Positions 10,062 through 38,938 of a stretch of 64,000 bases of DNA are shown piece after piece. Below the pieces are notes generated by a model, which was not told the origin of the DNA, did not search any database, and saw only the letters and a list, made by a program, of their open reading frames with translations. Made by a program: the position numbers and the translations under genes. Each line of letters begins with the position of its first letter. Position 1 is the stretch's first letter. This DNA comes from Bacteroidia bacterium (GTDB lineage: Bacteria; Bacteroidota; Bacteroidia; AKYH767-A; OLB10), in the NCBI GenBank assembly GCA_037045145.1, contig JBAOIA010000012.1, positions 857,550-921,549 on the forward strand, written 5' to 3'.

Positions 10062-10129
10062 TTTGTAAGTGCCACATTTTTTTAATCCATTGCATTATAT
10101 TTGCCCAATTAATGCAAACTCCATAACAA

Positions 10130-23636: not shown

Positions 23637-24221
23637 TTATAAATTTTTTAAAGCTTCTCTCAGCAAAACCTCAACAGACTGAAACTCACCACCACCAGCC
23701 ATCACTTTATTTAGCTCTTTTTCAGCCACATTTCTGTTAAAGCCAAGAGTAAGCAAAGCACTTAACGCTTCTTCCTTAATTGTATTGCCTTGTGTTAATA
23801 AAACCGGTGCAGAGGCGCCTGCCTTTCCTAACTTGTCTTTAAGGTCTATGACTATGCGCTGTGCGGTTTTGTCGCCTATGCCTTTAATTTTTTTAATTAC
23901 AGCCACATTGCCTGTGGTTATGGCACTTTGCAATTCTGTAGTGCTTAGCGATGAAAGCATGACTCTGGCAGTGCCCGGACCCACACCTGATACTGAAATA
24001 AGATTACGGAAAAGCTGTCTTTCATCTTCATCGGCAAAACCAAAAAGAAGGTGTGCATCTTCTTTAATAGATAAATGGGCATAAACTTTTGCACTCTGTG
24101 CATCTTTAAGTTTTGAATAAGTTTGCAGTGAGACCTGTAGTTGATATCCTACTCCATTGGCTTCAACAACAATGTAGGTGGCAGTTGCATGGGTTATTTT
24201 TCCTGAAATATAATCGTACAT
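23637..24221 (-). CDS. ruvA: Holliday junction DNA helicase RuvA
   Basis: 'MYDYISGKITHATATYIVVEANGVGYQLQVS' is the RuvA OB-fold N-terminus; the HhH motifs 'GIGDKTAQRIV' follow. Confidence 0.9.
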   Translation of the reverse strand: MYDYISGKITHATATYIVVEANGVGYQLQVSLQTYSKLKDAQSAKVYAHLSIKEDAHLLFGFADEDERQLFRNLISVSGVGPGTARVMLSSLSTTELQSAITTGNVAVIKKIKGIGDKTAQRIVIDLKDKLGKAGASAPVLLTQGNTIKEEALSALLTLGFNRNVAEKELNKVMAGGGEFQSVEVLLREALKNL

Positions 24222-24602
24222 TATCTTTTATAATTTTTTGCTACGCTAAAACGCGACCTCAAACGTACGGAAAGTTGATGAGTTGACGAATTACTGAACT
24301 TTTGAATTGCCATGTTGAAGAACTGATGCATGTGTCAAATGAAATTATAAATACACTAATGTTTAGTGGCTTTTCTAGATACACATTATGAAATTTGGAA
24401 AGTAAAACAAAAACAACCCTATCCTATACTCCCCATACAACTTGAAGCCTTCTTTGTTTTGATGTAAATTGAAATGAAATTTTTCATGTTTTATACCATC
24501 TTCAAACAAGTCAATGAGTCATACTTTTTGATGTAAACCTATTTCAGGGCAAGGCAAAATGGGCTCAAAGGAGCGCGACTTGACAGGTTAGGTCAAATTC
24601 AA

Positions 24603-24637
24603 GTTGAGTTGAGTTGAGTTGAGTTGAGTTGAGTTAA
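24603..24637. repeat. Pentanucleotide microsatellite (GTTGA)x7, one unit variant GTTAA
   Basis: Read directly: gttga gttga gttga gttga gttga gttaa gttga. Confidence 0.9.
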
Positions 24638-24663
24638 GTTGATTCAATTATCCTTTTCATTGA

Positions 24664-25116
24664 TTAGAACTCTCTGTTCCATTTAGGAAGTTGTCCATAT
24701 ATCTCAAAATACCTTTGTAAAATCACGCCCTCTACAAATGATGGTATATCCGCATTCTTCTTGTTAAAAGTTTCGTACCAATAAATGTCAAGTGCATCTA
24801 TTTTTTCATCTGTCAGTTTTTGTTTCCAAGTTTGTCTTCTTGGTCCGCCAAATTGTTTGCCGTTAATAATTCGGTCACAAATTCCACCTAATCTAACTTT
24901 TTTTGTTCCGTCCTGTTTTATTTTCCCTGAGCTGCCAATGTAAACCAAATTTACCCGTCCATTTTTAAGTTCGTAAACGCTATAAATTCCTATTCCGCTT
25001 TTAGGTGCGTTACATACTTCGCCAAGTTCTTCATTGGCAGAGAAAAAGAAATGGTCTTTGGATTTGTATTTTTCTAACTCTTCAAACATATAATTTTGAG
25101 TTGGTATGACACACAA
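24664..25116 (-). CDS. GIY-YIG nuclease-family protein (small, 150 aa)
   Basis: 'GIGIYSVYELKNGRVNLVYIGSSG' carries the GIY-(x13)-YIG spacing. It is the first gene of the accessory island next to ruvA. Confidence 0.55.
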   Translation of the reverse strand: MCVIPTQNYMFEELEKYKSKDHFFFSANEELGEVCNAPKSGIGIYSVYELKNGRVNLVYIGSSGKIKQDGTKKVRLGGICDRIINGKQFGGPRRQTWKQKLTDEKIDALDIYWYETFNKKNADIPSFVEGVILQRYFEIYGQLPKWNREF

Positions 25117-25122
25117 TTGCAG

Positions 25123-25356
25123 TCTGTGAAAAAATTAATTTCAAAAACATGTTCAAATATAGGAATAATGTAGTGTATTTAGATAATAAAAATTGATCAT
25201 AGCAATGCACACACTAACAGGAATAAATCGGGAGCAAATAACTTTTTTTAACTTTGAAAGTCAGGTAGCTCCAGACAACGAAATCCGTTTTATAGATGCT
25301 TTTGTTGAAGAGTTTATTTCTCCTGTCTTGGGCGTAAAGGAGCGCGACCTGACAGT
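25123..25356 (+). mobile_element. MITE-like IS derivative, copy 1. It retains the left end and the first roughly 55 codons of an IS5/IS1182-type transposase (DUF772-like N-terminus)
   Basis: About 90% identical to 27018..27258. It encodes 'MHTLTGINREQITFFNFESQVAPDNEIRFIDAFVEEFIS...KERDLTV*', which matches the 'NPVRfIDAFVd' transposase N-terminal motif. There is no DDE domain. Confidence 0.6.
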
Positions 25357-25380
25357 TGAAGTCAATTAGTGGCTATGGCT

Positions 25381-26946
25381 TTATTCATTCTGCAATACTT
25401 TAGTCAAATCTGTTGCAGTAAAATTTTTGTCTTGTGTGTCGTATAAAGTATTGCCAATCATAAATGCATTTGATGTCGCTTCAACTTCCGCAATTCTTTT
25501 TCCCTCTTTGTTTACAATCAAAGTATTTTTATCTTTTGCGAAGAATTTAAAATCGTTTTTTCGTTCGTAACAAATACTCAACTCATTAAAGTCAATTGTT
25601 TTAGATATGCTAAGTTGTTCGTCAAGTGATAATGTCTTGTACTGATTTGTGAATACAAACAACTTTGTAGAGTCAGATTGATTGAGATTTATTAAATCAC
25701 CGCTTTGAGCTGTAATAAAAACTTGGCTTCCAACAAAGTATTTCAACTCTCCAAAATCGTCTTTTGGAAATGATTTTTGCAAAATTTCATTTCCAGTTTC
25801 CATTGAGTATTTTGCGACTCTGTTTTTAAAAGTAAAATATATGTCTTTGCTGTGTAGTTCAAAACTCAATATCGGGTCGTCTTTGACATCTATTATCGAT
25901 AAAAATATTTGATTACCTGTTTGCCCGTCAAAAGCAGCAAAAAATGGCTTACCAAAGTCTAACTGTCTGTTACCCATAAAAGCCATCCCTTTATTAACCA
26001 TATATATGATGTTTCCTTTTATGAAGATTGTAGATTTGCTTGCTATGTCATCAGGAAAAGGGAACTTCCATATAACTTCTCCCGTTTGCATATCAATTTT
26101 AACCAGTTTTTCTTTTGAGGCAAAATAAATATTGCTACTATCAACTAAAGTATTTGAAACTAAATCTCGAACCAAATTGTGTCCTGTGGACATTACAAAA
26201 GTACCAGTCAGTAAGCCCAATGCCGCACCAGCCGCATTAGCTGCAACGGTTCGTGAATAATCTTTTTTACCAGTAACAGAGTAGTAGTCCCATCCTATTC
26301 CTGTTTTTATATTTATTTTGTGCTAACCTGCTGCTGCAACAATTAAAGTGGAGTCATCTATATAAAAAACATCGTTCCAGCCAAATTCCCTAAATAAATA
26401 TCGTTTCCAAAGTATGTTACCATTTTTTAAATCTATTCCTTCGAGTTCGTTTGTATAGCCTGTTGAGTTTCTAAATTTATAGCCAATACCAATATTGTCC
26501 ACAGGGTCAACGAAATAAATATTGTTTTTGACTTTCCAAAGTTTTTCTCCTGTATTTATATCAAGGCAATAACTCTTATTTCCAAAAGAATGAATTATTG
26601 TTTTACTAAACTGTTGTAAATTACTCGCATGAAATGCGATTTTTTTACTCCATAAAACCTTTTGGTTTTTAATGTCGAATTGAATAATTTTTCCACTTTT
26701 GTCAAGCCATTTTCCGTTTTTACTCAAGCCCCTTAGCTGAACTGTTAAAAGTCCGGTTGTTTCGTCTAAAAACGTTTCATGAATTCTGTCAGGGAAAACA
26801 TATTCCATACCTTTTACAACAAAACTATCAACAAGGCTTTTGCCAAACACCTTTTCATTGCTTAAAACCTGAATTTGATTTTTCTGGCAATATCCCGCTG
26901 TTGTAATTAAAAGCGAAAATCCAAAAATTATTTTTTCTATTTTCAT
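25381..26946 (-). pseudogene. PQQ-like/BamB-like beta-propeller repeat lipoprotein gene interrupted by an in-frame TAG at 26323-26325
   Basis: The ORFs 26323..26946 and 25381..26220 are in the same frame. The 102 nt between them (26221..26322) translate without any stop ('...VAAAG*HKINIKTGIGWDYYSVTGKKDYSRTVAANAAGAALGLLTGT...'). Both halves carry 'G..LW' propeller-blade motifs. The downstream half begins at TTG only in the ORF track. Confidence 0.6.
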
Positions 26947-27017
26947 GTGTTTGTTTACTGTCTTTTATTGAGGTGTTTGTTTGTTTTAGCGAGTATCATC
27001 ATGCCATTGGCTATAAC

Positions 27018-27258
27018 AGCAGTCTGTGAAAAAAAATAATTTCAAAAACATGTTCAAATATAGGGATAATGTTGTGTGTTTAGATAATAAATATTTGACG
27101 TAGCAATGTCCGCATTAACAGGAATAAATCGGGAGCGAATAACTTTTTCAAACCATGAAAGTCAGATAGCTCCAGACAATGAAATCCGTTTTATAGATGC
27201 TTTTGTAGAAGAGTTTATTTCAACTGTTAGGGGCGCAAAGGGGCGCGACCTGACGGTT
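27018..27258 (+). mobile_element. MITE-like IS derivative, copy 2 (same element as 25123..25356)
   Basis: Encodes 'MSALTGINRERITFSNHESQIAPDNEIRFIDAFVEEFIS...'. It is collinear with copy 1 from 'gcagtctgtgaaaaaa' through 'gcgcgacctgac(a/g)g'. Confidence 0.6.
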
Positions 27259-27666
27259 TGGGTATTGCCGAAGTGGCGGATTATTAGCACTAAAGTTCAA
27301 TAGAAATACTACTGTTGAACCTTGCACAATTGTTTCATAGAAGCACTTCTCCCGCCATTTTGGCAATACCGTGTTATAGCCAGTGGTTCTGTTAATCTGT
27401 CCTTGTAAACCATTGTCGTTATTGAGTTTCATTGTCTTTGTCGTGTTGGTTTGTGCGTGTTGCGGATTTTTAATATTTTCAGAAGAAGGGAGAAAAAAAT
27501 TGAATTTCTTCTTGGGTTGGGATAAGCACACTCTTTGCCAAGTTTTGGCTTGTGTGTCGGCTTCCCGAAGGGTCGGGACAGGCCGTGCGACTTGGCAATG
27601 TGTGTGCTTTTGTGCGTTGACTTTTCATTTGGCAAATGTAGTAAATGTTTTAAATTGAAACAAATG

Positions 27667-27698
27667 TTTGTTTTGTATTAAAACAATCTTTATCTTTG
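27667..27698 (+). promoter_or_regulatory. Putative promoter of the XRE-Panacea/toxin operon
   Basis: A -33 TTTG at 27667-27670 is followed after a 20-nt spacer by the -7 box TATCTTTG at 27691-27698. The ATG is at 27728. Confidence 0.35.
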
Positions 27699-27727
27699 TC
27701 CCGTTAAACAGCGAAACATAAATTGAT

Positions 27728-28531
27728 ATGAACATAAAATTGTCACAAAAGCAAATAGGTCAGAGGATAACCGAACTTCGTAAAATGAAAGGGTTGTCTC
27801 AGGAAGATTTGGCTAAAAGTGTCAAAATTTCCCGACCGTCTTTGGCTCAAATTGAGTTAGGAAACAGAAGCGTTGATATTCTTGAATTGCAAAAACTGTC
27901 ATTGGTTTTGGAGTTTTCGCTGGACGATTTTATGTCTAAGGATTTTTCTGCAAGTCAAGATGTTGATTTGAAAGAAGAAAAAAAGGCAAAGAAAGAAGAA
28001 GAACGTATTTCAGTGCCAACCTTGCAAGTCAATAAGTTTAAAAATGTCTTGTTGTATATCCTTGAACGCTGTGCAGGTAAGCCAAATGTTGGTGAAACGG
28101 TTCTTTATAAGTTGCTCTATTTCTCGGACTTCAATTATTATGAATTGTATGAGGAACATTTAACAGGTGCTAAATATCGCAAATTACCTTATGGGCCAGT
28201 TCCGCAAAAATTAGATACAATCATTGGTCAAATGATTGAAAAAGGTCAGTTGCAAAGAGTGAAAACAGAATACCATGGTTATCCTCAAACTCGCTATTTG
28301 CCTTTAGAAAAAGCTGATTTAACTCAATTAAGGGCAAGTGAAAAAGAAATCATTGACAGGGTTATAGAACAAATGAGTGATTGGTCTGCTGCTGCAATCA
28401 GCAACTATTCTCATAAGGATATGCCTTGGCTTGCTTCAAAGGAAGGAGAAGAAATAAATTATGAATTAGCTTTTTATAGAGATGCTCCTTTCTCTGTGAG
28501 AAACTATGGAGATGAAATTGAAGAACAATGA
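27728..28531 (+). CDS. HTH-XRE DNA-binding protein with a C-terminal Panacea (DUF4065, SocA-like) domain; putative antitoxin
   Basis: The N-terminal 'QIGQRITELRKMKGLSQEDLAKSVKISRPSLAQIELG' is an XRE helix-turn-helix. The C-terminal 'VLYKLLYFSDFNYYELYEEHLTGAKYRKLPYGPVP' fits the Panacea domain consensus. Confidence 0.75.
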   Translation: MNIKLSQKQIGQRITELRKMKGLSQEDLAKSVKISRPSLAQIELGNRSVDILELQKLSLVLEFSLDDFMSKDFSASQDVDLKEEKKAKKEEERISVPTLQVNKFKNVLLYILERCAGKPNVGETVLYKLLYFSDFNYYELYEEHLTGAKYRKLPYGPVPQKLDTIIGQMIEKGQLQRVKTEYHGYPQTRYLPLEKADLTQLRASEKEIIDRVIEQMSDWSAAAISNYSHKDMPWLASKEGEEINYELAFYRDAPFSVRNYGDEIEEQ

Positions 28532-28872
28532 CCTTTGACGAATTAACCGAATTTAAAAAGGATTTGAAAAACCTTTTAAAAAAATACAGAACGCTAAATG
28601 ACGATTTAGATGTGGTTAAACGAGTGCTAGAAGTTACACCCGATGAACGACCACCGTTTAGTTTTCGTATTGATAATTTGGGTTTAGAAACGTGTATCAT
28701 CAAGGTTAAGAAAATTGCTTGTAAAGCATTGAAAGGAAGAGGGGTAAATTCAGGGTTGAGATTGATTTATGCTCACTTTCCTGAAGAACAAAAAATTACC
28801 TTCATTGAATTGTATCATAAGAATGACAAGGAAAATGAAGACAAAAAAAGAATAACGGATAATTTTAAATAG
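28528..28872 (+). CDS. RelE/ParE-superfamily-like toxin, translationally coupled to the Panacea protein
   Basis: An ATGA overlap joins it to the upstream gene. 'KALKGRGVNSGLRLIYAHFPEEQKITFIELYHKNDKEN' fits the RelE/ParE core pattern 'G..R.IY......I.fi.l.H'. Confidence 0.55.
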   Translation: MTFDELTEFKKDLKNLLKKYRTLNDDLDVVKRVLEVTPDERPPFSFRIDNLGLETCIIKVKKIACKALKGRGVNSGLRLIYAHFPEEQKITFIELYHKNDKENEDKKRITDNFK

Positions 28873-28881
28873 TCAAATATC

Positions 28882-29115
28882 ATGAGTAAGAAAAATCAAC
28901 ATGTAGTCCCAAGTGGAAAAGAATGGGCGGTAAAAGGCGAAGGCAATAGCCGTAAAACTGCTATTGTGAACACACAAGCAGAAGCAATTAAAATTGCAAG
29001 AGAGATTGCCATTAACAATAAATCAGAAGTCGTTATCCATCGTTCTGACGGAACCATTCGTGATAAAGACTCTTATGGAAACGACCCTAATCCACCTAAA
29101 GACAAAAAGCATTAA
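28882..29115 (+). CDS. DUF2188-family small protein
   Basis: 'HVVPSGKEWAVKGEGNSRKTAIVNTQAEAIKIAREIAINNKSEVVIHRSDGTIRDKDSYGNDP' matches the DUF2188 consensus as I recall it. Confidence 0.65.
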   Translation: MSKKNQHVVPSGKEWAVKGEGNSRKTAIVNTQAEAIKIAREIAINNKSEVVIHRSDGTIRDKDSYGNDPNPPKDKKH

Positions 29116-29118
29116 GCG

Positions 29119-29340
29119 ATGATAGACATAAGTAAACAATCCGTAAATATTGACTGCCCTGAATGTAAACGGTCAATTTCTGTAACTATTCGGCAAGTAG
29201 CTGATGAAGCACGGATAAAATGTTCTTGCGGTCAGGAAATACAGCTGAAAGACAGTAATGGCAACAATCAAAAGGCAATCAGAGATATCAATAAGTCCTT
29301 TAGGGAACTCGAAAACACATTAAAAAAATTCGGACGATGA
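29119..29340 (+). CDS. Small zinc-ribbon protein (CPEC...C-x-CGQ), hypothetical
   Basis: It has four Cys arranged CxxC...CxC. It sits 3 nt after the DUF2188 gene and shares an ATGA overlap with the next gene. Confidence 0.4.
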   Translation: MIDISKQSVNIDCPECKRSISVTIRQVADEARIKCSCGQEIQLKDSNGNNQKAIRDINKSFRELENTLKKFGR

Positions 29341-29822
29341 AAAATTTCTACCTCTACAATAACCGCGTTGAAATTGTCAACGACAACGGAAGCATTTTCA
29401 CAATCTACTTCAACGAACATAGCGGAAAGGTTTATTACCGCTTTAAGATTGGCACTTTATCCAAAATAAAGCACCCGGGTATTTATTTGGGTGAAGATGC
29501 TTATGGCACACATTACTTTTTGCACAATCATTATCACTATGGAAAGGCACACATCACAACGGCTGCCGATTTTATTGAAGGACAAGCGATTTACATTTAC
29601 AACGAAAAGTGCAGCAATACTCCTTTGAAAGTAATTGAAATTGGGTTAAATGAAATACTCAGGGGCGAAAGCTACAAGCCCATTACTTACAACTGCCAAA
29701 CCTATACCAACACGGCTTGCCATAATCAACGCAAAAGTGCCGATGCCGAAAAATGGGTAGGTGGGCTTGTGTTGGGTTCGCTTGCTTTCCTCTTGATAAG
29801 TGCCATTGCAGGAAATAAATAA
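29337..29822 (+). CDS. LRAT/PLAAT-like (circularly permuted NlpC/P60 papain-fold) protein with a C-terminal transmembrane helix; putative phospholipase/acyltransferase
   Basis: The H-box 'KHPGIYLGEDAYGTHYFLHN' (His...His) is followed about 60 aa later by 'ITYNCQTY', a Cys in an NCEHF-like position. The C-terminal 'WVGGLVLGSLAFLLISAIAG' is a transmembrane segment. The His-before-Cys order matches the LRAT family. Confidence 0.45.
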   Translation: MKNFYLYNNRVEIVNDNGSIFTIYFNEHSGKVYYRFKIGTLSKIKHPGIYLGEDAYGTHYFLHNHYHYGKAHITTAADFIEGQAIYIYNEKCSNTPLKVIEIGLNEILRGESYKPITYNCQTYTNTACHNQRKSADAEKWVGGLVLGSLAFLLISAIAGNK

Positions 29823-29858
29823 TCATATAAAATCTGAAACTATCGAATATACTTTTAC

Positions 29859-30473
29859 ATGAACAAGAATACAATCATCATCCTAATCGTTGTCATTGTG
29901 ATTATGGGATTAGGTCTTTGGAAGGTGAATGAAACCTTACAAGAAGAAAGAAAAAAGCGAAAGGAAGCCGAACAAGCCAATGTGCGGTTGATTATGGACA
30001 GCATACGCAGGCAAAAAGGTTTTACCGAAGCGGTGAAACTGGAACTGGATAATCTGGCCAAACATTTTGAAGACATTGAACCGAATGTAACGGCTAAAAT
30101 TGCTAAAGCCATTCAGTTGATAGAAATAAACCAAACCGAAAATGCCATTGAAGATTTGGCCGTAATCATGGAAAACCTGCTGGAAGATTATTACAAAAAA
30201 GACAACGGCTTTGTTGCCTTCTTGAAAAACCGCAGGGCGGACCTACATCATTTGCTTACCTATTGCAATAAGGACAAAAAAATAAGCGATGTAGAGTTGC
30301 AGTTTTTTCTTGGCGTAAAAACCATACGCAACAAAGAAGACCACACACTAAATCAAAAGCTGGACGATTACCTGAACGCTACCGGTTTAATTGTAGGCAT
30401 CGGTGCCATTGTAAAAATTGCTTCGTTTTGGAAACAGAAAAAGCAATTGGAACTTATCCCAGTAAGGGCGTAA
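29859..30473 (+). CDS. Membrane-anchored protein with an N-terminal TM helix, a coiled coil and a C-terminal alpha-helical domain carrying an Rx4H (HEPN/DUF4145-like) motif
   Basis: N-terminal TM 'IIILIVVIVIMGLGLW'; a KEAE-rich coiled coil; C-terminal 'FLGVKTIRNKEDHTLNQ', which matches Rx4-6H. Confidence 0.4.
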   Translation: MNKNTIIILIVVIVIMGLGLWKVNETLQEERKKRKEAEQANVRLIMDSIRRQKGFTEAVKLELDNLAKHFEDIEPNVTAKIAKAIQLIEINQTENAIEDLAVIMENLLEDYYKKDNGFVAFLKNRRADLHHLLTYCNKDKKISDVELQFFLGVKTIRNKEDHTLNQKLDDYLNATGLIVGIGAIVKIASFWKQKKQLELIPVRA

Positions 30474-30478
30474 TACAT

Positions 30479-31861
30479 TTACGCTTTTACCTTTTTGTAT
30501 TTTACTTTTTTCTCCGCAGCTATTTTCATGGGCTTTTCTTCAATGGAATATGCTTTGGTTTTTTTGCCGCCTTTTTTCCCCTGAGCTTGCCGAAGGGTTT
30601 CCTTTTCTGCTTTAATCTTTTCCAATAAAACACTGGCAGGTTCATCTTCCGGATTTTGTGCAACCAACTCGCCACGGAATGCTTTTGCCAAAATGCTTTG
30701 GGGAAGTTTATCCAGCATGGCTTTGGCTTTGGTGTAGCGGGCTTCTAACTTATCGGCAAATGCAAAGAGTTGTTCTACCTTTCGGACGATTTCTTTTTGT
30801 TCTACGACTTCAGGAAGCGGGATCGATAGTGTTTTTAGTTGGGTAGTGTTTATCCTAGGTCTTGTTGCACCGTGAATATTCAAAACCAATTGTTCAAATG
30901 AACGCATTGAAGTCAATACAAAAAGCAGAAAGAACTTGTCTATTTTATTTTCATCTGGTCGAATACAAAAGCAATCAGCTTTTGCAATTGCTTTAGTTGG
31001 TAAATAAGGTAAAATGCAAGCCCTTATTTCTTCAGAAATAAAAGAAGAGAAAATTATATCACCTTCGCCAACTGTATGACGCAATAAAGACTGATATTTT
31101 TCTTTTGTTATATAAGTTTCCTTTTCGTGAACAAAATATAGATGTTCAATATTTTCAAGACGAATAACTCGAATACCTTTATCAGTGTAATCAGCAGTTT
31201 TTAAATTTGAACCAAATGGGCCATCAAAAATTCCACCTTTCGGAATTACGGAGTTTAATTCAACTTCGTCCCATTCTTTAAATCCATTCTTCTTCTTCCA
31301 TTCCTCCGTCAACTTACCACTTACAGCAGCAGCCAACACACTTTGCCGAAATCGTTTTAAAATGATTGGTATTTTTTCTAACCGTTGTTTGTTGCTTTCT
31401 ACTTTTTGCATTACCGCATCTAGCTTGGCTACTATGCGGTGCTGCTCGTCAAGGGGTGGAAGGGGGATATGTATTTCTTTTTGTGCCTTTCCCGTTTGAA
31501 CAAACGGTTGGCCTGAACCCCCTTTTGGCCAAAAATTTTCATTATTCAATAAATAGAACAGGTAGTCAACATGTTTATCGTCATTTGCAAATGCTCTAAT
31601 TACCGAAGTATTAGCAATAGTTGTCCATTGCCCATTTGCTCTAAAACATTTACCACATCTTGCTCCAACAGCACTCAATATGATAGCTTCACCTTCTTCC
31701 TCAAAAAAATCAACTTTGCCATCAGGGCCAGTTCCACTAAATGCAATATATTTCCCATCTTCTTTGTAAACCTTTTTAGTTAAAGAAGAATTACCAGAAG
31801 TAATATTAACTACTTCACCTAATAACGGGAATTCCCAACCTTGTGGTAAACTATTCTCCAT
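30479..31861 (-). CDS. hsdS: Type I restriction-modification specificity subunit
   Basis: There are two target-recognition domains, each preceded by the conserved 'LP.GWE...LGE' opening, and a central coiled-coil repeat. Its start overlaps the stop of hsdM. Confidence 0.85.
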   Translation of the reverse strand: MENSLPQGWEFPLLGEVVNITSGNSSLTKKVYKEDGKYIAFSGTGPDGKVDFFEEEGEAIILSAVGARCGKCFRANGQWTTIANTSVIRAFANDDKHVDYLFYLLNNENFWPKGGSGQPFVQTGKAQKEIHIPLPPLDEQHRIVAKLDAVMQKVESNKQRLEKIPIILKRFRQSVLAAAVSGKLTEEWKKKNGFKEWDEVELNSVIPKGGIFDGPFGSNLKTADYTDKGIRVIRLENIEHLYFVHEKETYITKEKYQSLLRHTVGEGDIIFSSFISEEIRACILPYLPTKAIAKADCFCIRPDENKIDKFFLLFVLTSMRSFEQLVLNIHGATRPRINTTQLKTLSIPLPEVVEQKEIVRKVEQLFAFADKLEARYTKAKAMLDKLPQSILAKAFRGELVAQNPEDEPASVLLEKIKAEKETLRQAQGKKGGKKTKAYSIEEKPMKIAAEKKVKYKKVKA

Positions 31862-33257
31862 TGAATTCCAGTAGGGTTAATATTTCTTTTAAATCGTCCA
31901 CCACAGCTTCCAGTTCTGCAATGGCTTCTGTGGCAAGGTCGTTGGGTTCGGGTAAGCTGTCGGCATCTTCTATGCTTTCGTCTCTCAGCCAGGTAATGTC
32001 GAGTTTGTAATTCCGTTTTGTAATTTCCTCTATTGTAAAACAACGGAAACGCCCTGTTTCGCCTTCGTCTTTTCGTTTGCTTTTTCCGTTAGGGTCGGTG
32101 CCGTAGCATTTTTCAAAATCGGTAAAATGCTTGTCGGTTAGCGGACGGTCTTTTTTGGTAATGCCTTCAATGTTGCTGCGGTTGTCGTAAATCCAAACTT
32201 TTTCGGTGGGCAAACCTTTCTGAAAGAAAATCACATTGGCTTTTACACCCTGTGCGTAGGGAGTAAAGGTTCCTCTGGGCAAACGCACAATGGTGTGCAG
32301 GTTGCAATCCTGCATCAGTATTTCAAATACTTCACCTGCTTTGTCTTCAAACAACACATTGTCGGGCAACACTATGGCAGCACGTCCACCCGGTTTCAGA
32401 GTGCTCATAATGTGCTGCACAAAATTCAACTGCTTGTTGCTGGTTTCTACCGTAAAATCATCCCGTTCGGGAACCTGGTTTGCTCCTTTTGTTCCAAAGG
32501 GTGGATTGGCCAACACCACATCAAACCTGGTGCTGTCGGGTGTGTTGTAAATGGTATCGCCCAGTTTTATTTTCGGGGTAACGCCATGCAAATACATATT
32601 CATCAAAGCCAGTCGCCTTGGCCTTGCCACCAACTCCTGTCCGTAATAGGTTTTTTCACGAATGCGTTTTACATCTTCACGGGGCAGCGCACCTTTGCTT
32701 TCCTGCATCAGCCATTCATAAGCCGATACTAAGAAACCACCTGTGCCGCAACTGGGGTCGGAAATGGTAAATGAACTTTTGCCTCTCGGGTCGGGCTTCA
32801 TTAACCGCACCATGCTTTGTATCAAAGGTCGTGGTGTAAAGTATTGCCCTGCACCCTTTTTGCCTTCGCTGGCGGCTTTTTCCAGCAGTCCCTCAAAGGC
32901 AGCACCTTTTACATCCACATCCATGCTCGTCCATTCGTCTTCTTCAATCAGGTTCAGCAGTTTTTTCAAACTCACCGGGTTGTTGAAGCGATTTTGTGCT
33001 TGTGTAAATATTTCACCTAACAGACCTTGCTCTTTGGCCAGTTCACGCAGGGTGTCGGTGTAATGGTCCATCAAATCGCCACCGCTTAATTTGGTCAGCG
33101 ATTGCCAGTTGTATTTTTTATGCAGATGCACTTCTTTTTCATCTGCCATTTTCAGGAAGAGAAGAAACGACAGTTGCTCTATGTAATCGTTATAATCAAT
33201 GCCCTCGTGGCGAAGCGTATGGCAAAAGCCCCACAATTTATTTACTACATCACTCAT
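31851..33257 (-). CDS. hsdM: Type I restriction-modification N6-adenine DNA methyltransferase subunit
   Basis: HsdM_N-type N-terminus; the motif I region 'DPSCGTGGFL' and motif IV 'NPPFG' are present. Confidence 0.9.
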   Translation of the reverse strand: MSDVVNKLWGFCHTLRHEGIDYNDYIEQLSFLLFLKMADEKEVHLHKKYNWQSLTKLSGGDLMDHYTDTLRELAKEQGLLGEIFTQAQNRFNNPVSLKKLLNLIEEDEWTSMDVDVKGAAFEGLLEKAASEGKKGAGQYFTPRPLIQSMVRLMKPDPRGKSSFTISDPSCGTGGFLVSAYEWLMQESKGALPREDVKRIREKTYYGQELVARPRRLALMNMYLHGVTPKIKLGDTIYNTPDSTRFDVVLANPPFGTKGANQVPERDDFTVETSNKQLNFVQHIMSTLKPGGRAAIVLPDNVLFEDKAGEVFEILMQDCNLHTIVRLPRGTFTPYAQGVKANVIFFQKGLPTEKVWIYDNRSNIEGITKKDRPLTDKHFTDFEKCYGTDPNGKSKRKDEGETGRFRCFTIEEITKRNYKLDITWLRDESIEDADSLPEPNDLATEAIAELEAVVDDLKEILTLLEFNGE

Positions 33258-33258
33258 A

Positions 33259-33945
33259 TTATGCTGCTATTGCTAAGTTTATTTCTTGAATCAATTTGGT
33301 GTAATCGTCTGCAAATACTTTTTTGAATTTGTTCAGTCCGCCTCTGTCAGCAAAAACGGGTAATTCCTGCAAATCTTCTTCGTCTAAAGTCATGTTTTGT
33401 TTTAGATGTTCTTTGATGTATTCCATCCATTTTTGTTGTTCGTCATTCAGCCTTTTTCCGGTTGTTACTTTCTGAATGGCTTGGTTCACCCGTTCTTCGG
33501 GGCTTAACAAAGGTTCGGTTTCTTTGGCTGCATGCTTTACCATGCTGATGATGTCAACGGCATCTTTCTGATAAACGATTTTGTGTGCCTTTTGCAAACT
33601 GGCTTCATCATAATTGCTCTCTTTTAGTTTTTGCCTTAGTTCGTTCAAAGCATTGGTGTTCCAATCTTTTGGCTTGTTTAACAAAATGCTGATGGCGGCA
33701 ATTTCATTTTCTTTTCGTTTTACAAATTCAGAAAATGCCAGTAAATAATCCATTGGTTGTAAACCGTATCTTCCTTCTGCTTCAAACAACACCATCGAAC
33801 TCACTTCGTCCTGCACCTCATACCCAACCAGAAAAACCTTTTTGGCTCTTTCGTAGTCCACCAATAGCTTTTGAAACTGCTCGTTTCGGAGCAATTCCAT
33901 CACACTGGTGAAGCTTTCAAATATTTCGGGTAACGATTTTGCCAT
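33259..33945 (-). CDS. HsdR C-terminal-domain-like protein (EcoEI_R_C/DUF3387-type helical domain) encoded as a separate ORF
   Basis: It starts in a TAATG overlap with the stop of the helicase ORF. The sizes add up: 683 aa plus 228 aa is about the length of a full HsdR. The domain identity is inferred from position and predicted helical composition, not from a recognised motif. Confidence 0.45.
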   Translation of the reverse strand: MAKSLPEIFESFTSVMELLRNEQFQKLLVDYERAKKVFLVGYEVQDEVSSMVLFEAEGRYGLQPMDYLLAFSEFVKRKENEIAAISILLNKPKDWNTNALNELRQKLKESNYDEASLQKAHKIVYQKDAVDIISMVKHAAKETEPLLSPEERVNQAIQKVTTGKRLNDEQQKWMEYIKEHLKQNMTLDEEDLQELPVFADRGGLNKFKKVFADDYTKLIQEINLAIAA

Positions 33946-35996
33946 TACTTATACTTATCAAAAAAATTAGAAATCTGCTCGGCAAATTTTCCCATATCGC
34001 CATCAGGAATATAGGTTTTGAATTTGTCACGGGCATTTCCACTCATATCTTTTTCAATTCTATGCAGTCGTTTTGCCAAACGCTTGGCATTGGCTCTGCG
34101 GTCTTCGTTGTTGTATATTTTTTCTATCAGTTCTTTAATGGTTATGGTATCGGTTCCCGGTGGGTCAATTTTAAAGTTGTAGCTGGCATCTTTAAAATAC
34201 TTTATCAATGTTCCGTTGAAACAATCAAAGATTACAAAGTGAGTTTTGCCGATGTCATCACATTTTCGTGTTCCTCTGCCCAACATTTGTTCCCAAAGAA
34301 TACGGCTTTTAACAGGTCGGAGAAAAACAATGTATTCCAGAGAAGGAATGTCAACTCCTGTGCTTAACATATCAACGGTAACCACAATTTTCGGATTGGG
34401 TCTGTTTCTAAACTCTTTAATTTTTTTCAAAGGTCTGTCCACCGTTGGGCTGCCTGTAATCTTTGCCACAAAATCGTCACCCTGATTAAAAACCTGTTTG
34501 CAAATGCTCACCAAACGGTCAGCATGTGAAATCATGGGTATGTCGTTGGATGCAAAAATCAAGGTTTTTGGAAAACGCCCTGTGCGTTGTTCCCACTCGT
34601 CAGTATATTTTTTTAGTTCTTCAATTATTTTTTGGTTGGTGTCGGGGGCTGTAATTTTTTCTTCAATCTCTGTTGAAGTAAATTCCCGCTCATCTTCCAA
34701 TTGGTCAATTTGTTCTCTGCCTGTTTCAGTGTCAATCATCCCCACTTGTTCGCCTTCTTTCAAAAAAGCTCCGTTCATCAACACTTCCGAATTGATAGCC
34801 ACAGCATCATAATCTACCAAAAACCCTTCGTCAATGGCTTGTTGCAATGGATAATTGAAAATAGGTTTTCCAAAATAGGCAACCGTATGTGATGCAGGCG
34901 TTGCAGTTAAACCAACTTTAACGGCATCAAAATGATTTAAAACATTTCGCCAAACATTCGTTTCTTTTGAAGTGTAACCTCTGTGGCACTCGTCAGCAAT
35001 AATCAAATCGAAAGCATGCGATGGAATTGAAAGCGTTTCTGCATCATCGTCTCCACTTCCTGCCTGCTCGGCAGACAGGTCTTCATCCTCACCAAATGCA
35101 CCCGCTTTGCCGTAAAGGTTAATTGCCATTCGCTGGATGGTGCAGACATAAAGAAAGGTTTTTGTTCCATCAGGATTTGTCAAATAGGAATTAGGCAACA
35201 CAGTTGGGTCGTATGCTTCCCCTTCAAAATCTTCTTTCTTAAAGCGTTGTGAGTATAATTCGTATTCGTCTTTAAACTTGATATTTCTCGGTGTGTCAAA
35301 TGATGCAAAAGCAGTAACGGCTTGTGCGGCTAACGACTTTCTATCAACCAAGAACAAAATGCGTTTAGCATAACCGGAAGCCAACATTCGGTAAACAAGA
35401 TTAACTGTGGTGAAAGTTTTTCCTGTTCCTGTTGCCATTGCTAAAAGCATCAGGCGTTTGCCGTCTTCCAAATTATTTTCAAAAGCTTGTATAGCTTCTT
35501 TTTGGTAAGGCCTAAGTCCGGGAGTATTAATGGGCCTGACTTTCAGCCATTGCAAAGCCGTATCTCGTTTTGCGTTAAATAAAGTTTCCATCGCTTCTGG
35601 CTTATGAAAACTGTAAATCTGTCGGCTTAAGTTTTTGTTGTCTCTTACATCTAAATAGTAAATCAATTCACCATTAGAAGAATACAAAAATGGAACTCGA
35701 TATTGATTCCATTCACCAATTGTCTTATCTGCACCTTTTGAATATCGCTTGGCTTGTTCCAACACATTTGCTGCACCAACCTCCAATTTCTTTGCTTCAA
35801 CCACACCTAATAAATTTCCATTTACAACCAAAGCATAGTCCGCAGGTCCGTTTTTTGTTTGCAATTCCTCAATTGCGTGATTTGTCAAAATAGACAAGTC
35901 CATTCCCTCAGAGTAAGGAATGATATGCCAACCGGCAGCTATTAGCTGCTGGTCAATTCTTTTCTTTCTTGTTATTTTCTCTGATTCGTATGTCAT
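33945..35996 (-). CDS. hsdR: Type I restriction enzyme R subunit (N-terminal nuclease plus SF2 helicase core)
   Basis: The HSDR_N-type nuclease N-terminus comes first. The helicase motifs follow: 'MATGTGKT' (motif I), 'DECHRG' (motif II) and 'QMLGRGTR' (motif VI). Confidence 0.85.
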   Translation of the reverse strand: MTYESEKITRKKRIDQQLIAAGWHIIPYSEGMDLSILTNHAIEELQTKNGPADYALVVNGNLLGVVEAKKLEVGAANVLEQAKRYSKGADKTIGEWNQYRVPFLYSSNGELIYYLDVRDNKNLSRQIYSFHKPEAMETLFNAKRDTALQWLKVRPINTPGLRPYQKEAIQAFENNLEDGKRLMLLAMATGTGKTFTTVNLVYRMLASGYAKRILFLVDRKSLAAQAVTAFASFDTPRNIKFKDEYELYSQRFKKEDFEGEAYDPTVLPNSYLTNPDGTKTFLYVCTIQRMAINLYGKAGAFGEDEDLSAEQAGSGDDDAETLSIPSHAFDLIIADECHRGYTSKETNVWRNVLNHFDAVKVGLTATPASHTVAYFGKPIFNYPLQQAIDEGFLVDYDAVAINSEVLMNGAFLKEGEQVGMIDTETGREQIDQLEDEREFTSTEIEEKITAPDTNQKIIEELKKYTDEWEQRTGRFPKTLIFASNDIPMISHADRLVSICKQVFNQGDDFVAKITGSPTVDRPLKKIKEFRNRPNPKIVVTVDMLSTGVDIPSLEYIVFLRPVKSRILWEQMLGRGTRKCDDIGKTHFVIFDCFNGTLIKYFKDASYNFKIDPPGTDTITIKELIEKIYNNEDRRANAKRLAKRLHRIEKDMSGNARDKFKTYIPDGDMGKFAEQISNFFDKYK

Positions 35997-36459
35997 ATTT
36001 CAATCCCGAAATTTACGTTTTTAATCGGTGCGGTGGCAAAAAATGGCTCTTTTGCTTTTGCTGAAGGGCTGGCTTGTGTGGTTGGGGCAAAAGCAAATGT
36101 GCCATTTGTGCGATGACAATAGAAATTCAATTTTTTTTGTGCGGTGGGGAAAAAATTAAAACACAGAAGGGTTGGCAATGAGTGTCGGTTTAATCGCTGT
36201 CCGTTTGTTGTATCGTTTCTATGTCTGTGTTCACCTGTCAAAATGGTTTACTTTTTTCTCGTCTAAGTTCGTCTTTGTCTGTTGTGTCGTGTCGTTTTAC
36301 GCTTGCTGGTAACGGTTTGGCGCTTGGCGCAGTGGCGGATTTCGGAGCACTAAACTGTCAATACACCACAAAAGTTGATGCGAGGTAGAATGTTCAATTA
36401 ACCACGTCACCCGCCATTGAGCCAAACGCCTGTTATGTGCTGCCCTTCTTCTCATTCCA

Positions 36460-38391
36460 CTAGAATAACTTATTTATCTCAGCAAACATTTTCTCAAAGT
36501 TGTCTAAGGTTTTTGGTTTGAAGTAGCTTTTGTCAACTCCAAGTTGGTTGAGTTTATTAGCTGGTCTGTAATGATTAAACCTTTCTTTACCAATTACTTT
36601 ATTTATCTGCTTTAATATAGTGTCAATAGTATTGTCAAGGTCTGCAACTTTGATAGTTGGATGTTCTTTATCGAATGCAGCATTGAAGATTTTCAAATAT
36701 TCTTCCTTATCGAAAAGGTCTTCAATGTCAGCTGTTGTTTTACCGTTGTTAGCGAACTCATTAAAGAATCTAATATTTTTCTCTTTAATAATTTTGTGCA
36801 TAATCAGGTCTGCAACTTTTTGCTTTCCTTTTTGGTCGGTGAATGTGTCAAGTAAACAAGCAACATTTAATTTAGAGCCACGAAGCAATGAAATAAAAGT
36901 TGAAACTTTGTCTAAACCTCCAACAGGAACAATTGTGATGTTGTCTTTAAGGAAAGTTCTTTTTTCTGATTCAAGTATGCTTGATATTAAAGTCAAGTAA
37001 ATTAAATCAGCCGGACCTTCAACAAGCAAATTGTTTTTAGATACAAATAAATTTTGTGCTATGTCGTAGCCCAATGCAGCTTGTAATGGGAATAATGTGT
37101 TAGGGTCTTTCTCTTGTATGGAATCGGAAATTATCGTTCCTTCCTCTGTCTCGAAACAAGTGCGAACTCGGTCAAGATGTTCTGTTTCTACCATAAAGGG
37201 AGAGTGTGTCGTATAGATTATTTGATACTTTTTAGAAAGATCGTCAAAGAAGCGAAGTAAATCAGCTTGTGCAGAGGCGTGTAGATTTAAACCTGGTTCA
37301 TCCAATAGAAGAACATAATCGGAGTTTTTATCAGCTTGAATTTTGCTGAACCAAATTATGAAGGAGAAAAACCAATTAAATCCTTTGCTCCGTCTATCTA
37401 AAGGCAGAGTTATTTTATGTCGTTGACTTTTAACTCGTATATCGAGTATTTTTTCTGGCTGTCCTTGTGGGTTAGTTGTATTCTGAATTTTGAATTCAAT
37501 GTCAAGATTCTTATTGGTTGACCAATATTTGAAAATTTCATTAGTTATTTTATTGGAAGATGCTTCCAATAGAGCGATATATTTTTCGTATTCCTGTTCG
37601 GTTGCATTTAATATTTCTTCAGGTTTTATTCTTGCTAATTCAAATAACGCCTTTGAAGTTTTATCTTTTTCGTTTGTAGGTGGTTCATTTTTCAGTTTAT
37701 TGATGTTTATTTTTCCTCTTAATGGGTAATAATCATCAAAATACCAAAACTTAGGCATTTTGGCTTTTATCCAATTTTTAGCAATATAGGATTCTAACAA
37801 ATTTGTCCAAGATGCCGTGTTGTAGCCTCCGTCAATAATTCTTTTTATTTCTGTTTTGAACGCTGCTAAATCATCATCCCCCTCTACGGCAACAATGTTT
37901 GCAATGTCTTTCAATGATGCGGTTTTCTTTATGGCTTCTTTGGTTGCATCTGATAGAGCATATTCAGAAACTTGAAGCTCTAAAAACTTTTTCTGATTAG
38001 CAGAAAGTCCTCCAAATGTGCTTGTTTTAGATTTATAATGACAGGTATAAGTAAACTCTTTTGTTGTAAAAACGCCTTTACCAAATTCTTCTTCAATCTC
38101 CTTTAACAAGTCAGTCGAAATTTCATACTTGCATTGAATAATATCGCAGTCATCTTCGCTATGTTGAAAATCAATTAACTCATTTCTTGGGTAGTCTTGA
38201 GTTATGTCGAAAACAAAGTCTGGGTCTGCGGTAAAATAGTTTGTCTTTGCAATGGCAGTTAGAAAAGAAGTTTTTCCTGCTTCATTCATTCCAACAATAG
38301 TCGTAATTGAAGGGTCAATATTTACGGTTTGTGATTTCTGAATACTTTTGTATTTGTCAATCGTAACTTGTATTAATTTTATCATTGTCAT
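36460..38391 (-). CDS. OLD-family (Overcoming Lysogenization Defect) ATP-dependent nuclease: ABC-type ATPase fused to a C-terminal TOPRIM domain
   Basis: Walker A 'GMNEAGKTS'; ABC signature and Walker B 'LLLDEPGLNLH'; the C-terminal 'LLVEGPADLIYL...VPVGGLDK' are TOPRIM motifs. No UvrD-like partner is adjacent. Confidence 0.7.
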   Translation of the reverse strand: MTMIKLIQVTIDKYKSIQKSQTVNIDPSITTIVGMNEAGKTSFLTAIAKTNYFTADPDFVFDITQDYPRNELIDFQHSEDDCDIIQCKYEISTDLLKEIEEEFGKGVFTTKEFTYTCHYKSKTSTFGGLSANQKKFLELQVSEYALSDATKEAIKKTASLKDIANIVAVEGDDDLAAFKTEIKRIIDGGYNTASWTNLLESYIAKNWIKAKMPKFWYFDDYYPLRGKININKLKNEPPTNEKDKTSKALFELARIKPEEILNATEQEYEKYIALLEASSNKITNEIFKYWSTNKNLDIEFKIQNTTNPQGQPEKILDIRVKSQRHKITLPLDRRSKGFNWFFSFIIWFSKIQADKNSDYVLLLDEPGLNLHASAQADLLRFFDDLSKKYQIIYTTHSPFMVETEHLDRVRTCFETEEGTIISDSIQEKDPNTLFPLQAALGYDIAQNLFVSKNNLLVEGPADLIYLTLISSILESEKRTFLKDNITIVPVGGLDKVSTFISLLRGSKLNVACLLDTFTDQKGKQKVADLIMHKIIKEKNIRFFNEFANNGKTTADIEDLFDKEEYLKIFNAAFDKEHPTIKVADLDNTIDTILKQINKVIGKERFNHYRPANKLNQLGVDKSYFKPKTLDNFEKMFAEINKLF

Positions 38392-38938
38392 TTGTTTTTT
38401 GTCTGTTTAAAGTTAGCAATGTCGGTCAAATAGGGTTGCACATAACATTTATATATAAGAAGTTTTTCATCTAAAACATGCCGAATACCTCACAAATATA
38501 GCGGTATTAAGAAGTTGTACAAATTTACAGTTCATACCCTATTTTGTCTAACGAGCTTTGTATTTTGCTTAGGTGTTTTTACTTACATGTGTATATATCA
38601 TGGTAGTGCACAGACTTTTATGACCTAATAGCTGTTTAATGCTCAAAAGGTCGGTGACAATTTTAAGCAGGTGGGTGACATAGTTATAGCACAGGGTATG
38701 CAGAAAGTAAAATACTTAACGTACAATGTAAAAGGAAAAAGCGATGAGGTGAAAAGTGTTAAGCCCAAATAATTATACAGCATGAAAATGTTTTATGCCG
38801 ATGCTATTAGCCCTGATGGAGACCTGCAAGGATTATGTGCGAGAGCGGTGCCATGCACCGGGGCGACAGCAGGACGGAACCACTGATGGAGTTACTGAAG
38901 CTTGTGCTCCAAAAAATTCTCTACACAAAGACAAAATG

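Follow-up and report, generated by a model that had tools for sequence, protein, structure and literature searches.

A strain-variable defence island between ruvA and maeB of a Bacteroidia bacterium as a probable decayed platform for integron-like cassette exchange

We analysed a stretch of 64,000 nucleotides, hereafter the window, from a Bacteroidia bacterium (Bacteroidota; AKYH767-A; OLB10; assembly GCA_037045145.1, contig JBAOIA010000012.1, positions 857,550 to 921,549 of the forward strand), in which a block of accessory genes separates the housekeeping genes ruvA and maeB. This ruvA-maeB junction is probably a decayed chromosomal platform that worked like an integron, a reading to which we give a probability of about 0.72. 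It rests on sequence comparisons that demonstrate an insertion with respect to other genomes, a family of sites and its structure, the signature of cassettes, an exact junction at GTTA, and the remnant of an integrase. The platform is not filed as a canonical integron, because the window lacks the integrase of a complete integron (IntI with its additional domain) and because its sites differ in detail from attC.

The initial annotation had placed an accessory or defence island in this junction. Comparison with other genomes, carried out by a RuvA scan of one genome per species followed by tblastn with the window proteins, agrees with that view, as the ruvA-maeB gene order is not kept in all relatives, which show either adjacency of the two genes or other contents. 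About 14.4 kb lie between maeB and ruvA in the window (edges 24283/24311 to 38696/38749), and the corresponding gap is 108 bp in L002, 53 bp in L004 (Sphingobacteriaceae), and 11 bp in L007 (Flavobacteriales), which argues that adjacency is the ancestral state; maeB and ruvA are also neighbours in L012, where maeB is inverted. The two closest genomes hold different contents at the junction, namely about 344 bp with a scrap of an IS3-like transposase (L061), and 1.8 kb with a gene for a Kelch protein with a tail of the type IX secretion system (T9SS) (L001). In the latter, a metagenome-assembled chromosome designated 'complete' (CP064983.1), maeB and ruvA are each read in several frames (5665-7916 and 10001-10582), likely owing to indel errors of long-read assembly and not to pseudogenisation.

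Variation within the species was assessed on conspecific contigs, defined by exact-protein look-up as those whose RuvA or MaeB is 100% identical to that of the window. At least four different junction contents were found among them: the window's own gene set; an MmeI-like restriction-modification (R-M) system with PDDEXK_3 and KilA-N; AbiEii with a histidine kinase and a JmjC protein; and fn3 and giant proteins. Together with the comparative data, these contents indicate that the block is accessory, not core, and rich in predicted defence genes. On the ruvA side, L322, L324 and L325 follow the window to 27482 at 98.6-99.8% identity, beyond which they carry PDDEXK_3, a DprA-like gene, the MmeI-type R-M and KilA-N, and L323 diverges exactly at 25362, the end of a miniature inverted-repeat transposable element (MITE)-like repeat, before the histidine kinase, the JmjC protein and AbiEii. 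On the maeB side, L330 is the same as the window through the gene for the OLD nuclease into hsdR; L328, L329, L331 and L335 diverge at 38436-38443, where several other contigs end.

This maeB-side divergence occurs at a precise point. The conspecific contigs are 99% identical to ...CTTCTTATATATRAATGTTA (38443; limits 38436-38451), then show four unrelated continuations after GTTA; in the orientation of the integrase, all read ...GAAAAACTTCTTATATAT(A/G)AATGTTA before diverging. What follows is TGTGCAACC... and OLD in the window and L330, TCGGAAACT... with fn3 and a 2194-aa protein in L328 and L329, TAAGCAATA... in L331, where the contig ends after 127 nt, and CAGGCAATG... with a 121-aa gene in L335. 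This last gene ends with ACTGCCTGT-AAC, 8/9 complementary to the start of its cassette, and is followed by a short attC-like site. Because four conspecific sequences diverge directly after GTTA, the junction would mark an attI-like insertion point; as a sequence pattern, insertion at G|TT beside an integrase gene is what characterises attI, and the GTTA junction appears to behave as an attI site. A GTTA junction about 80-150 nt downstream of the integrase stop codon (read by eye) was also observed in L321, L204, L282, L301 and L316. Two of these loci (L204 and L282) have the same cassette (GTTACCACCAATGCTAAAAAAGG...) behind different integrase/attI regions, apparently direct evidence of the move of a cassette between platforms.

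The integrase itself is present as a 5'-truncated tyrosine recombinase pseudogene lacking its first ~215 codons and retaining the last ~50-60. It was recovered by tblastn (E 6e-6) with phage and metagenome Xer/IntI-like integrases, the queries being small integrases encoded beside hairpins in L083, L119, L170 and L197, and it covers positions 130-171 of 172 of PF00589 (28.5 bits versus a cut-off of 27.1). Full-length relatives encoded beside arrays measure 267-277 aa, have the XerA/integron-integrase and IntI models as their closest ones, and match the integron-integrase model TIGR02249 in two stretches with 150-171 bits (cut-off 265); this match in two stretches suggests that the IntI-specific insertion is absent from these ~270-aa proteins.

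The cassette sites came to light through two diverged direct repeats listed in the initial annotation, which are real and whose coordinates could be refined (attC-like sites 1 and 2, Table 1). They align at 78% column identity, and each folds as a long hairpin whose outer stem differs from that of the other copy with complementarity kept. A pattern taken from their conserved inner stem (GTGGCGGATT, 55-85 nt, CCGCCATT) has 2 exact matches in the window versus 0 in 100 shuffles. Modular acquisition, with which the repeats had been held consistent, proved right on a more specific basis, with the repeats as attC-like sites and one edge formed by the integrase remnant and the attI-like point. Site 1 is conserved in L322, L324, L325 and L326. 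The TAAC..GTTA unit of site 2 (36310-36435) is 95-97% identical to copies in L106 and L185, and since this identity stops exactly at the unit, with unrelated flanks, the unit appears to be discrete. No further convincing site was found in the window with a covariance model built from aligned hairpin copies (R1), 38434-38569 reaching only 10.2 bits.

Scanning of IMG/VR (viral) with the inner-stem pattern recovered at least 120 loci, and a variant of the pattern for the subfamily of copy 2 recovered at least 120 further loci in metagenomes. All family figures given here (R1 matches, arrays, cargo and neighbours) refer to the matches listed in both scans. R1 matched 263 times in 100 viral loci, 209 times in 100 metagenome loci, and 42 times in the other 20 metagenome loci. 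The copies share a common design of ~135 nt: a short flank, TAAC, a G and a bulge of 4-5 nt lead into a stem of 19 bp, which encloses an A-rich loop of ~65 nt and, on its return side, is followed by 1-2 nt and GTTA. Among 65 aligned copies, 93.2% of the stem cells are paired, versus 35-51% when partners are slid by 1-3 columns, and double changes occur in 232 cells versus 78 in shuffles (0/500 shuffles reach 232), with ten stem pairs having changes on both sides. AAC and GTT are kept in 62-64 of these 65 copies. The bulge is one-sided, with 5 nt (GTTTT/GGTTT) opposite 1-2 nt on the other arm, and G-T wobbles are present. In keeping with the inverted repeats of attC, the family has R''/R' bounds and conserves structure over sequence; its boxes read YTAAC and GTTAK, and the RRRY/RYYY part of the attC R' and R'' (GTTRRRY, RYYYAAC) fits loosely. 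A reading of the 3' half of the hairpin as a shared N-terminal peptide (..PPL..) was discarded, as residues vary while base pairs are kept. In blastn searches of cultured and deposited phages, the window copy of the hairpin had no match, and a phage-type copy matched one uncultured huge phage. Metagenome contigs often start or end in or beside a hairpin, or at the maeB edge (e.g. L225, L242, L257, L265, L271, L331-L334), which suggests that hairpin repeats and strain heterogeneity break metagenome assemblies.

The sites stand in co-oriented arrays: L087, for instance, has ten of them within 5.7 kb, and L264 has seven within 6.6 kb. In the viral arrays, 138 intervals have a median spacing of 350 bp, and a single open reading frame (ORF) on the hairpin strand fills 112 of them, compared with nine filled by a reverse ORF. 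For each site n, we then took the nine bases that precede its AAC and scored them against the nine that follow the GTT at other sites. Complementarity to site n-1 averaged 6.68/9 in viral and 6.63/9 in metagenome arrays, with at least 7/9 in 72% and 76% of the cases, respectively, whereas the site's own 3' flank gave 3.73 and 3.49 and random pairs 3.61 and 3.21 (Mann-Whitney, n-1 versus random: p = 3e-47 viral, 4e-22 metagenome). Co-oriented sites, single ORFs, and starts complementary to their own box are what is expected of cassette arrays, and are found here at the family level. The flank complementarity appears to be the integron cassette signature, as produced by reciprocal exchange at GTT: a cassette closed into a circle would regain a box that is paired throughout. 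Models based on repeats, terminators or RNA do not predict this complementarity.

The same signature delimits one cassette in the window. The bases after the GTT of site 2 (ATGTGCTGC) match GTTGCACAT-AAC (38435-38446), 2 kb further on past the OLD start codon, at 7/9, a value that only 2% of random pairs reach. Because these flanks are complementary, OLD appears to be one clean single-gene cassette (36435-38446), with the gene on the strand opposite to the hairpin. The same layout, with flank matches of 11/12, was observed in L321 and L204. Sites 1 and 2 enclose a 9-kb segment in which a plus-strand toxin-antitoxin (TA)/DUF2188 operon and a minus-strand R-M system converge, 5 bp apart; the segment is probably made of two or more cassettes fused by site loss. 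No partner for the flank of site 2 (GTTACCAGCAAG) was found in the window. In all, the window has two strong sites separated by 9 kb, another site or R'' box, decayed, at a distance of 2 kb from site 2, and an integrase pseudogene; a cluster of attC sites lacking an integrase (CALIN) is defined by two or more neighbouring attC sites, for which the default spacing in IntegronFinder is 4 kb.

In the scenario that we propose, the minus strand would show, in order, the remnant of a small Xer/IntI-type recombinase beside maeB, ~120 nt leading to an attI-like site that ends in GTTA, the cassettes, each closed by a ~135-nt attC-like hairpin (asymmetric 5-nt bulge, 19-bp covarying stem, A-rich loop), and last an older ruvA-side part fixed in the species, comprising the beta-propeller gene, the MITEs and a 141-aa gene. 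Site-specific exchange at the GTT/AAC boxes would move cassettes out and in, which would make the start of a cassette complementary to the bases before the AAC of its own hairpin. A tyrosine recombinase of the small Xer/IntI type would catalyse this exchange and, because the local copy is dead, would be supplied in trans; folded single strands may be the substrate, as in integrons, and the defence genes of the island are presumably active. Some of the differences between strains would instead stem from ordinary homologous recombination within conserved non-coding modules and MITE copies, and not at GTT.

A number of observations weigh against this reading. No intact integrase was found in the window or in any conspecific contig, and the full-length relatives of the remnant score below the NCBIfam cut-offs, including the XerA/integron-integrase model (170-195 versus 220). 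Nor is there a single fixed architecture of integrase and array, as at least three arrangements were seen. Compared with canonical attC, the hairpins have an asymmetric bulge in place of the unpaired central spacer and no obvious extrahelical bases (no clear ones appear in the aligned copies), and their inner stem (GTGGCGG/CCGCCAT) is, unlike that of canonical attC, highly conserved, a feature partly imposed by the search pattern. The polarity of ORFs also differs, being on the hairpin strand in phage arrays (L081-L200) and on the opposite strand in the bacterial subfamily that includes the window (L202-L321), where anti-oriented ORFs outnumber co-oriented ones 97 to 2 on the downstream side of the hairpin and 68 to 7 on its upstream side. 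In the window, the flank signature is confined to the OLD cassette: the segment enclosed by sites 1 and 2 reaches 3/9, and site 1 is self-complementary, with ATTGGCTATAAC matching the bases after its own GTT (ATAGCCAGT) at 8/9. Finally, the ruvA-side breakpoints at 27482, in a conserved non-coding module, and at 25362 are not at GTT, and seem to reflect homologous exchange rather than site-specific exchange.

Such breakpoints would be expected of an ordinary defence island at a recombination hotspot, turned over by insertion sequence (IS) elements, MITEs and homologous recombination, in which the hairpins would be dispersed palindromes of the repetitive extragenic palindromic (REP) or MITE type, or terminators. 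We consider this unlikely. It accommodates the MITE remnants that bracket the beta-propeller gene, the divergence of L323 exactly at a MITE end, the 27482 breakpoint, and the absence of a functional recombinase locally. Nevertheless, passive repeats leave unexplained the flank complementarity between neighbouring sites (p 1e-22 to 1e-47), the exact post-GTTA divergence of four conspecific variants, and the co-oriented one-ORF arrays with their compensatory stem changes. The location of the integrase remnant at the extreme maeB-side edge could also evoke a degraded prophage, satellite or integrative element that entered beside maeB, with the repeats as attL/attR or as phage-derived sequences; in addition, the hairpin family is abundant in viral-classed contigs that carry terminase, portal and capsid genes, and small integrases lie directly beside hairpins in L083, L170 and L119. 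Yet the repeats are only 78% alike, have stems that differ but are internally compensated, and have unmatched flanks (at 3/9, they fit neither the attL/attR of a 9-kb element nor the ends of one cassette). Moreover, they bracket only 9 kb and leave OLD and the integrase remnant outside, the island genes scanned with Pfam gave no match to phage structural, replication or lysis families, and the conspecific strains swap single cassettes at GTTA and not one whole element, all of which makes such an origin very improbable. No tRNA or tmRNA that could serve as an integration target lies near the island.

We see only a slim chance that the hairpins are conserved for a function as structured non-coding RNA, be it as cis-regulatory leaders or as small RNAs belonging to defence and anti-defence genes. 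Strong covariation, a stable fold, an intergenic location often just upstream of ORFs, and changes compatible with G-U pairing on one strand are features that an RNA would share. But no Rfam family matched at the gathering threshold or even at E ≤1, the genes beside the hairpins have no function in common (137 Pfam families in 150 genes) and lie on either strand relative to the hairpin, and an RNA role gives no reason to expect that the outer flanks of neighbouring copies are complementary.

The cargo of the arrays differs between phages and bacteria. The 129 ORFs of phage cassettes include 16 N6_N4 methylases, 3 C5 methylases and 2 Dam, together with single ORFs for Mom, a Tad2-like protein and a SLOG-family protein, and ~70% of them have no Pfam match. 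The 150 genes flanking hairpins of the window's subfamily in metagenomes comprise defence functions (JetD, GmrSD, type I and III restriction enzymes, TmtA) as well as beta-lactamases, regulators and T9SS-tail proteins. Around the hairpin of L106 that is 97% identical to site 2 are a type III R-M system and a GIY-YIG protein, and L185 has an AbiJ-like protein by its hairpin. The same kind of site would appear, from these gene contents, to border anti-defence genes in phages and defence genes in their hosts.

The gene inventory of the island, established from the ORF listing and profile searches (Pfam, NCBIfam, PADLOC), places the genes where the initial annotation had them, on the same strands (Table 1). 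A type I R-M system, an OLD nuclease, a Panacea TA pair and a PDC-S16 candidate in an accessory region are the composition expected of a defence island, and the PADLOC search that had been advised returned matches including Old (1.8e-29) and candidate PDC-S16 (1e-36). The other advised check, on GC skew, was of no use: base composition (GC 0.33-0.47 inside versus 0.35-0.46 outside the island) was rejected as a sign of foreign origin. OLD was correctly named, with AAA_15 and OLD TOPRIM domains and Old as the best PADLOC model; having both ATPase and TOPRIM, and no other gene in its cassette, it corresponds to the stand-alone (class 1) type. An exact-sequence look-up of OLD found no record. For the predicted PanAT pair, the antitoxin domain is clear and the toxin ORF has only a weak RelE match (E 0.059). 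The unknown four-gene cassette exists as four small plus-strand genes, the first of which is DUF2188 (4e-25 in Pfam), which corresponds to the PADLOC candidate PDC-S16; the other three have only weak matches. The type I R-M system has hsdR, hsdM and hsdS as announced, with the correction that hsdR consists of two ORFs split at a TAATG overlap (33945). As the 228-aa piece lies within annotated hsdR of other bacteria, restriction may be impaired by this split.

Conserved non-coding modules accompany both hairpins of the window. Parts of the module upstream of panA recur 3' of the hairpin in many metagenome loci (e.g. 37 nt at 100% in L254), and it contains, near 27690, a TAnnTTTG-type box (TATCTTTG) that we take to be Bacteroidota promoter-like. 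The module between site 2 and hsdR directly abuts the hairpin in L240, and an 82-aa ORF at 35993-36241 is probably not a gene. Both modules (36019-36306 and 27400-27563) face their downstream gene (hsdR and panA, respectively) and share a common word, AAAAATTGAATTTC, in inverted orientation. Such hairpin-flanking modules may be portable promoters or leaders.

The ruvA-side part begins with a small gene that had been annotated as encoding a GIY-YIG protein. Its start is likely the ATG at 25089, since the homologues are 141 aa long. The protein, fixed beside ruvA in all conspecific contigs, has 205 homologues at 57-87% identity, the top one of which is named GIY-YIG domain protein by UniRef. It has the GIY...YIG motif, invariant Tyr, Gly and Arg, and a beta-beta-alpha-alpha-beta-alpha order of elements, and no family match in Pfam, NCBIfam or PADLOC; its AlphaFold2 model is confident (pLDDT 93) and has no significant Foldseek match in the PDB. 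That annotation is supported by the motif, the element order and the UniRef name; the family assignment is not confirmed by a profile or by structure. The protein shares 87% identity with one from Polaribacter haliotis, and 57-74% with proteins from a wide range of Flavobacteriia and also from Marinimicrobia. By comparison, the housekeeping proteins encoded in the genome studied here share only ~50% identity with their Flavobacteriales counterparts, which suggests a recent spread of the small gene.

Two IS-derived MITE-like repeats, 87% identical, were found as described, as was a broken beta-propeller gene in two ORFs; a partial third copy of the repeat is also present. The short ORF of the MITE is 40% identical to an annotated Chryseobacterium plasmid transposase (tblastn E 9e-5); it showed no similarity to the DDE transposase of L322 when a relationship was considered. 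The latter belongs to a full DDE_Tnp_1_4 insertion sequence (L322:18186-19499) just past sprA and absent from the window, another sign of active mobile elements in the species. The ~240-nt MITE-like element has the ends GTCAGRCTGTGAAAAAA... and ...GCGCGACCTGAC, and has inserted independently into the TAAC/GTTA box of two attC-like sites, once in each orientation: site 1 in the window and the site of the first cassette in L335 (8995-9043). Its copies coincide with strain breakpoints. Copies A and B bracket the beta-propeller (PQQ/BamB-type) gene, which is split alike (207 + 270 aa) in the conspecific contigs and is replaced by a histidine kinase gene between the two MITE copies of L323 (4797-5037 and 6817-7051). 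A suspected homology of this beta-propeller to the Kelch/T9SS-tail occupant of the L001 junction was dismissed (no tblastn match at E ≤1e-5). Beyond ruvA lies sprA, a giant gene whose product SprA is the T9SS translocon. Outside the island, tandem coding repeats of ~231 nt and ~740 nt (families D1 and D3-D6; window 900-3320 and 56150-57940) sit in large surface-protein genes.

Table 1. Features of the ruvA-maeB junction and its surroundings (positions in the window).
Feature	Position	Strand	Remarks
sprA, 2443 aa	16145-23476		Beyond ruvA; SprA_N annotated on identical gene in conspecific contigs
ruvA	23637-24221	-	Housekeeping flank; Pfam RuvA_N, HHH_5, RuvA_C
Left (ruvA-side) homology limit	24283-24311		Blastn: L001 alignment ends at 24282, L061 at 24310
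Partial third MITE copy	24560-24596	+	Repeat family D7
(GAGTT)n microsatellite, ~8 units	24597-24640		Directly after partial MITE copy
Small ORF, 150 aa from TTG	24664-25116	-	GIY...YIG motif; conserved protein
MITE-like repeat A	25115-25362	+	Families D2, D8; 87% identical to copy B; first ~54 codons of transposase
Beta-propeller gene, split, 279 aa + 207 aa	25381-26220, 26323-26946	-	Weak PQQ_2 and Beta-prop_ACSF4 matches
5' flank and R'' box of site 1 (ATTGGCTATAAC)	27006-27017	+	Displaced by MITE B (~240 nt)
MITE-like repeat B	27018-27254	+	Inserted in R box of attC-like site 1
attC-like site 1	27242-27385	+	GTT 27372-27374; R1 88.7 bits, E 8e-17; -53.6 kcal/mol, z -5.0
Non-coding module upstream of panA	27386-27727	+	Conspecific breakpoint 27482 inside; TATCTTTG box near 27690
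HTH-Panacea antitoxin, 267 aa	27728-28531	+	SocA_Panacea 1.9e-22, HTH_3 2.2e-12
Putative toxin ORF, 114 aa	28528-28872	+	Overlaps antitoxin; weak RelE match
Four-gene operon	28882-30473	+	DUF2188, Zn-ribbon protein, PPPDE-like protein, membrane protein
hsdS	30479-31861	-	Methylase_S
hsdM	31851-33257	-	N6_Mtase/HsdM_N
hsdR C-terminal piece, 228 aa	33259-33945	-	EcoEI_R_C
hsdR, 683 aa	33945-35996	-	ResIII/HSDR_N/Helicase_C
Conserved non-coding module, site 2 to hsdR	36019-36306		76-78% identity over 270-280 nt to L236, L240, L289, L311
attC-like site 2	36301-36444	+	TAAC 36310-36313, GTT 36432-36434; R1 118.9 bits, E 2e-23
OLD cassette	36435-38446	+ (OLD gene on -)	Bounded by GTT of site 2 and R'' box GGTTGCACATAAC (38434-38446)
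OLD nuclease, stand-alone	36460-38391	-	AAA_15 1.6e-25, OLD-like_TOPRIM 1.3e-9; PADLOC Old 1.8e-29
attI-like region	38443-38568	-	Integrase stop, ~120 nt, ...CTTCTTATATATAAATGTTA, then first cassette
Tyrosine recombinase pseudogene, 5'-truncated	38569-38715	-	Frameshifted tail to ~38537
Right (maeB-side) homology limit	38696-38749		L061 aligns to 38696, L001 to 38749
maeB	38939-41200	-	Housekeeping flank; malic, Malic_M, PTA_PTB

The main value of the analysis is the hairpin family that it exposes, rather than the island itself. The family appears to be widespread in Bacteroidota and their phages, and is barely described: a literature search found no description of this hairpin family, its bacterial arrays or a cognate integrase. 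More tentatively, and with somewhat less than even odds, Bacteroidota and their phages might share a distinct integron-like exchange based on small Xer-like integrases without the IntI insertion and on long attC-type hairpins, in which phages accumulate and shuffle anti-defence genes and hosts shuffle defence genes at the same sites. If so, methylases, Mom and Tad2-like proteins would be the phage cargo and OLD, R-M, Wadjet, GmrSD and AbiJ the host cargo, cassettes could in principle cross between the phage and host sides of the arms race, and the island of the window would be a chromosomal platform of the shared system, caught with a dead integrase. Integrons are held to be rare to absent in Bacteroidota, and phage attC sites have been treated as isolated curiosities; under this hypothesis, a large phylum and its phages would own a cassette-exchange machinery that explains the gene-by-gene turnover of defence islands, and hundreds of small phage cassettes, ~70% without Pfam match, would form a catalogue in which to look for anti-defence genes. 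In the same way, the arrays of bacteria point to candidate defence genes, such as the DUF2188 operon and many unannotated neighbours.

How, then, does the junction compare with known systems? Like other defence islands at hotspots, it holds a strain-variable set of R-M, OLD, TA and candidate systems, enclosed by two housekeeping genes that are neighbours in related genomes; unlike in those islands, the mechanism of turnover would be readable here from the GTTA junction, the hairpins and the integrase remnant. Integrons have their own attC-targeting elements, the IS1111-attC insertion sequences and group IIC-attC introns, and the ~240-nt MITE, found once in each orientation at the R box of an attC-like site, is comparable to these. 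In contrast to them, the MITE derives from a different transposase, perhaps of the IS1182/IS5 type, and is non-autonomous, and its target specificity rests on two cases.

The nearest published sites are those of Polaribacter phage P12002L, where R1 matches four intergenic sites between DNA methyltransferase genes, one of which is the published P12002L_attC1 sequence, predicted by HattCI and cloned by Qi et al. In that study, P12002L_attC2 recombined with attI1 under IntI1, phage cassettes were found to carry orphan methylases, and 17 CALINs were counted in all phages (Qi et al., 2023, PMC9892861). The P12002L attC sites differ from the present family in being 65-77 nt long and in lacking the GTGGCGGATT...CCGCCATT module, and they were presented as isolated cases, with no Bacteroidota-wide family, bacterial counterpart or cognate integrase described (PMC9892861).

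Compared with integrons, the recombinases considered here measure ~270 aa, score below the integron-integrase cut-offs and apparently lack the IntI insertion; the integrase gene points in the same direction as the bacterial cassettes, and its stop codon is followed by the GTTA junction; the hairpins, at ~135 nt, are long and combine a conserved inner stem with a 5-nt bulge on one side; and very large multi-gene segments can occur between sites, in a host phylum almost without reported integrons (IntegronFinder 2.0, PMC9024848). On the other hand, sedentary chromosomal integrons and CALINs are known to carry anti-phage defence cassettes (bioRxiv 10.1101/2024.07.02.601686; PMC9024848), and defence systems and a TA pair are likewise among the cargo here. 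The arrays resemble those of integrons and CALINs in their co-oriented AAC...GTT hairpins with one or few genes per unit, and, as in integrons, the start of a cassette is complementary to the box before its own site, and a GTT insertion point lies beside a tyrosine recombinase gene and is followed by a first cassette that depends on the strain.

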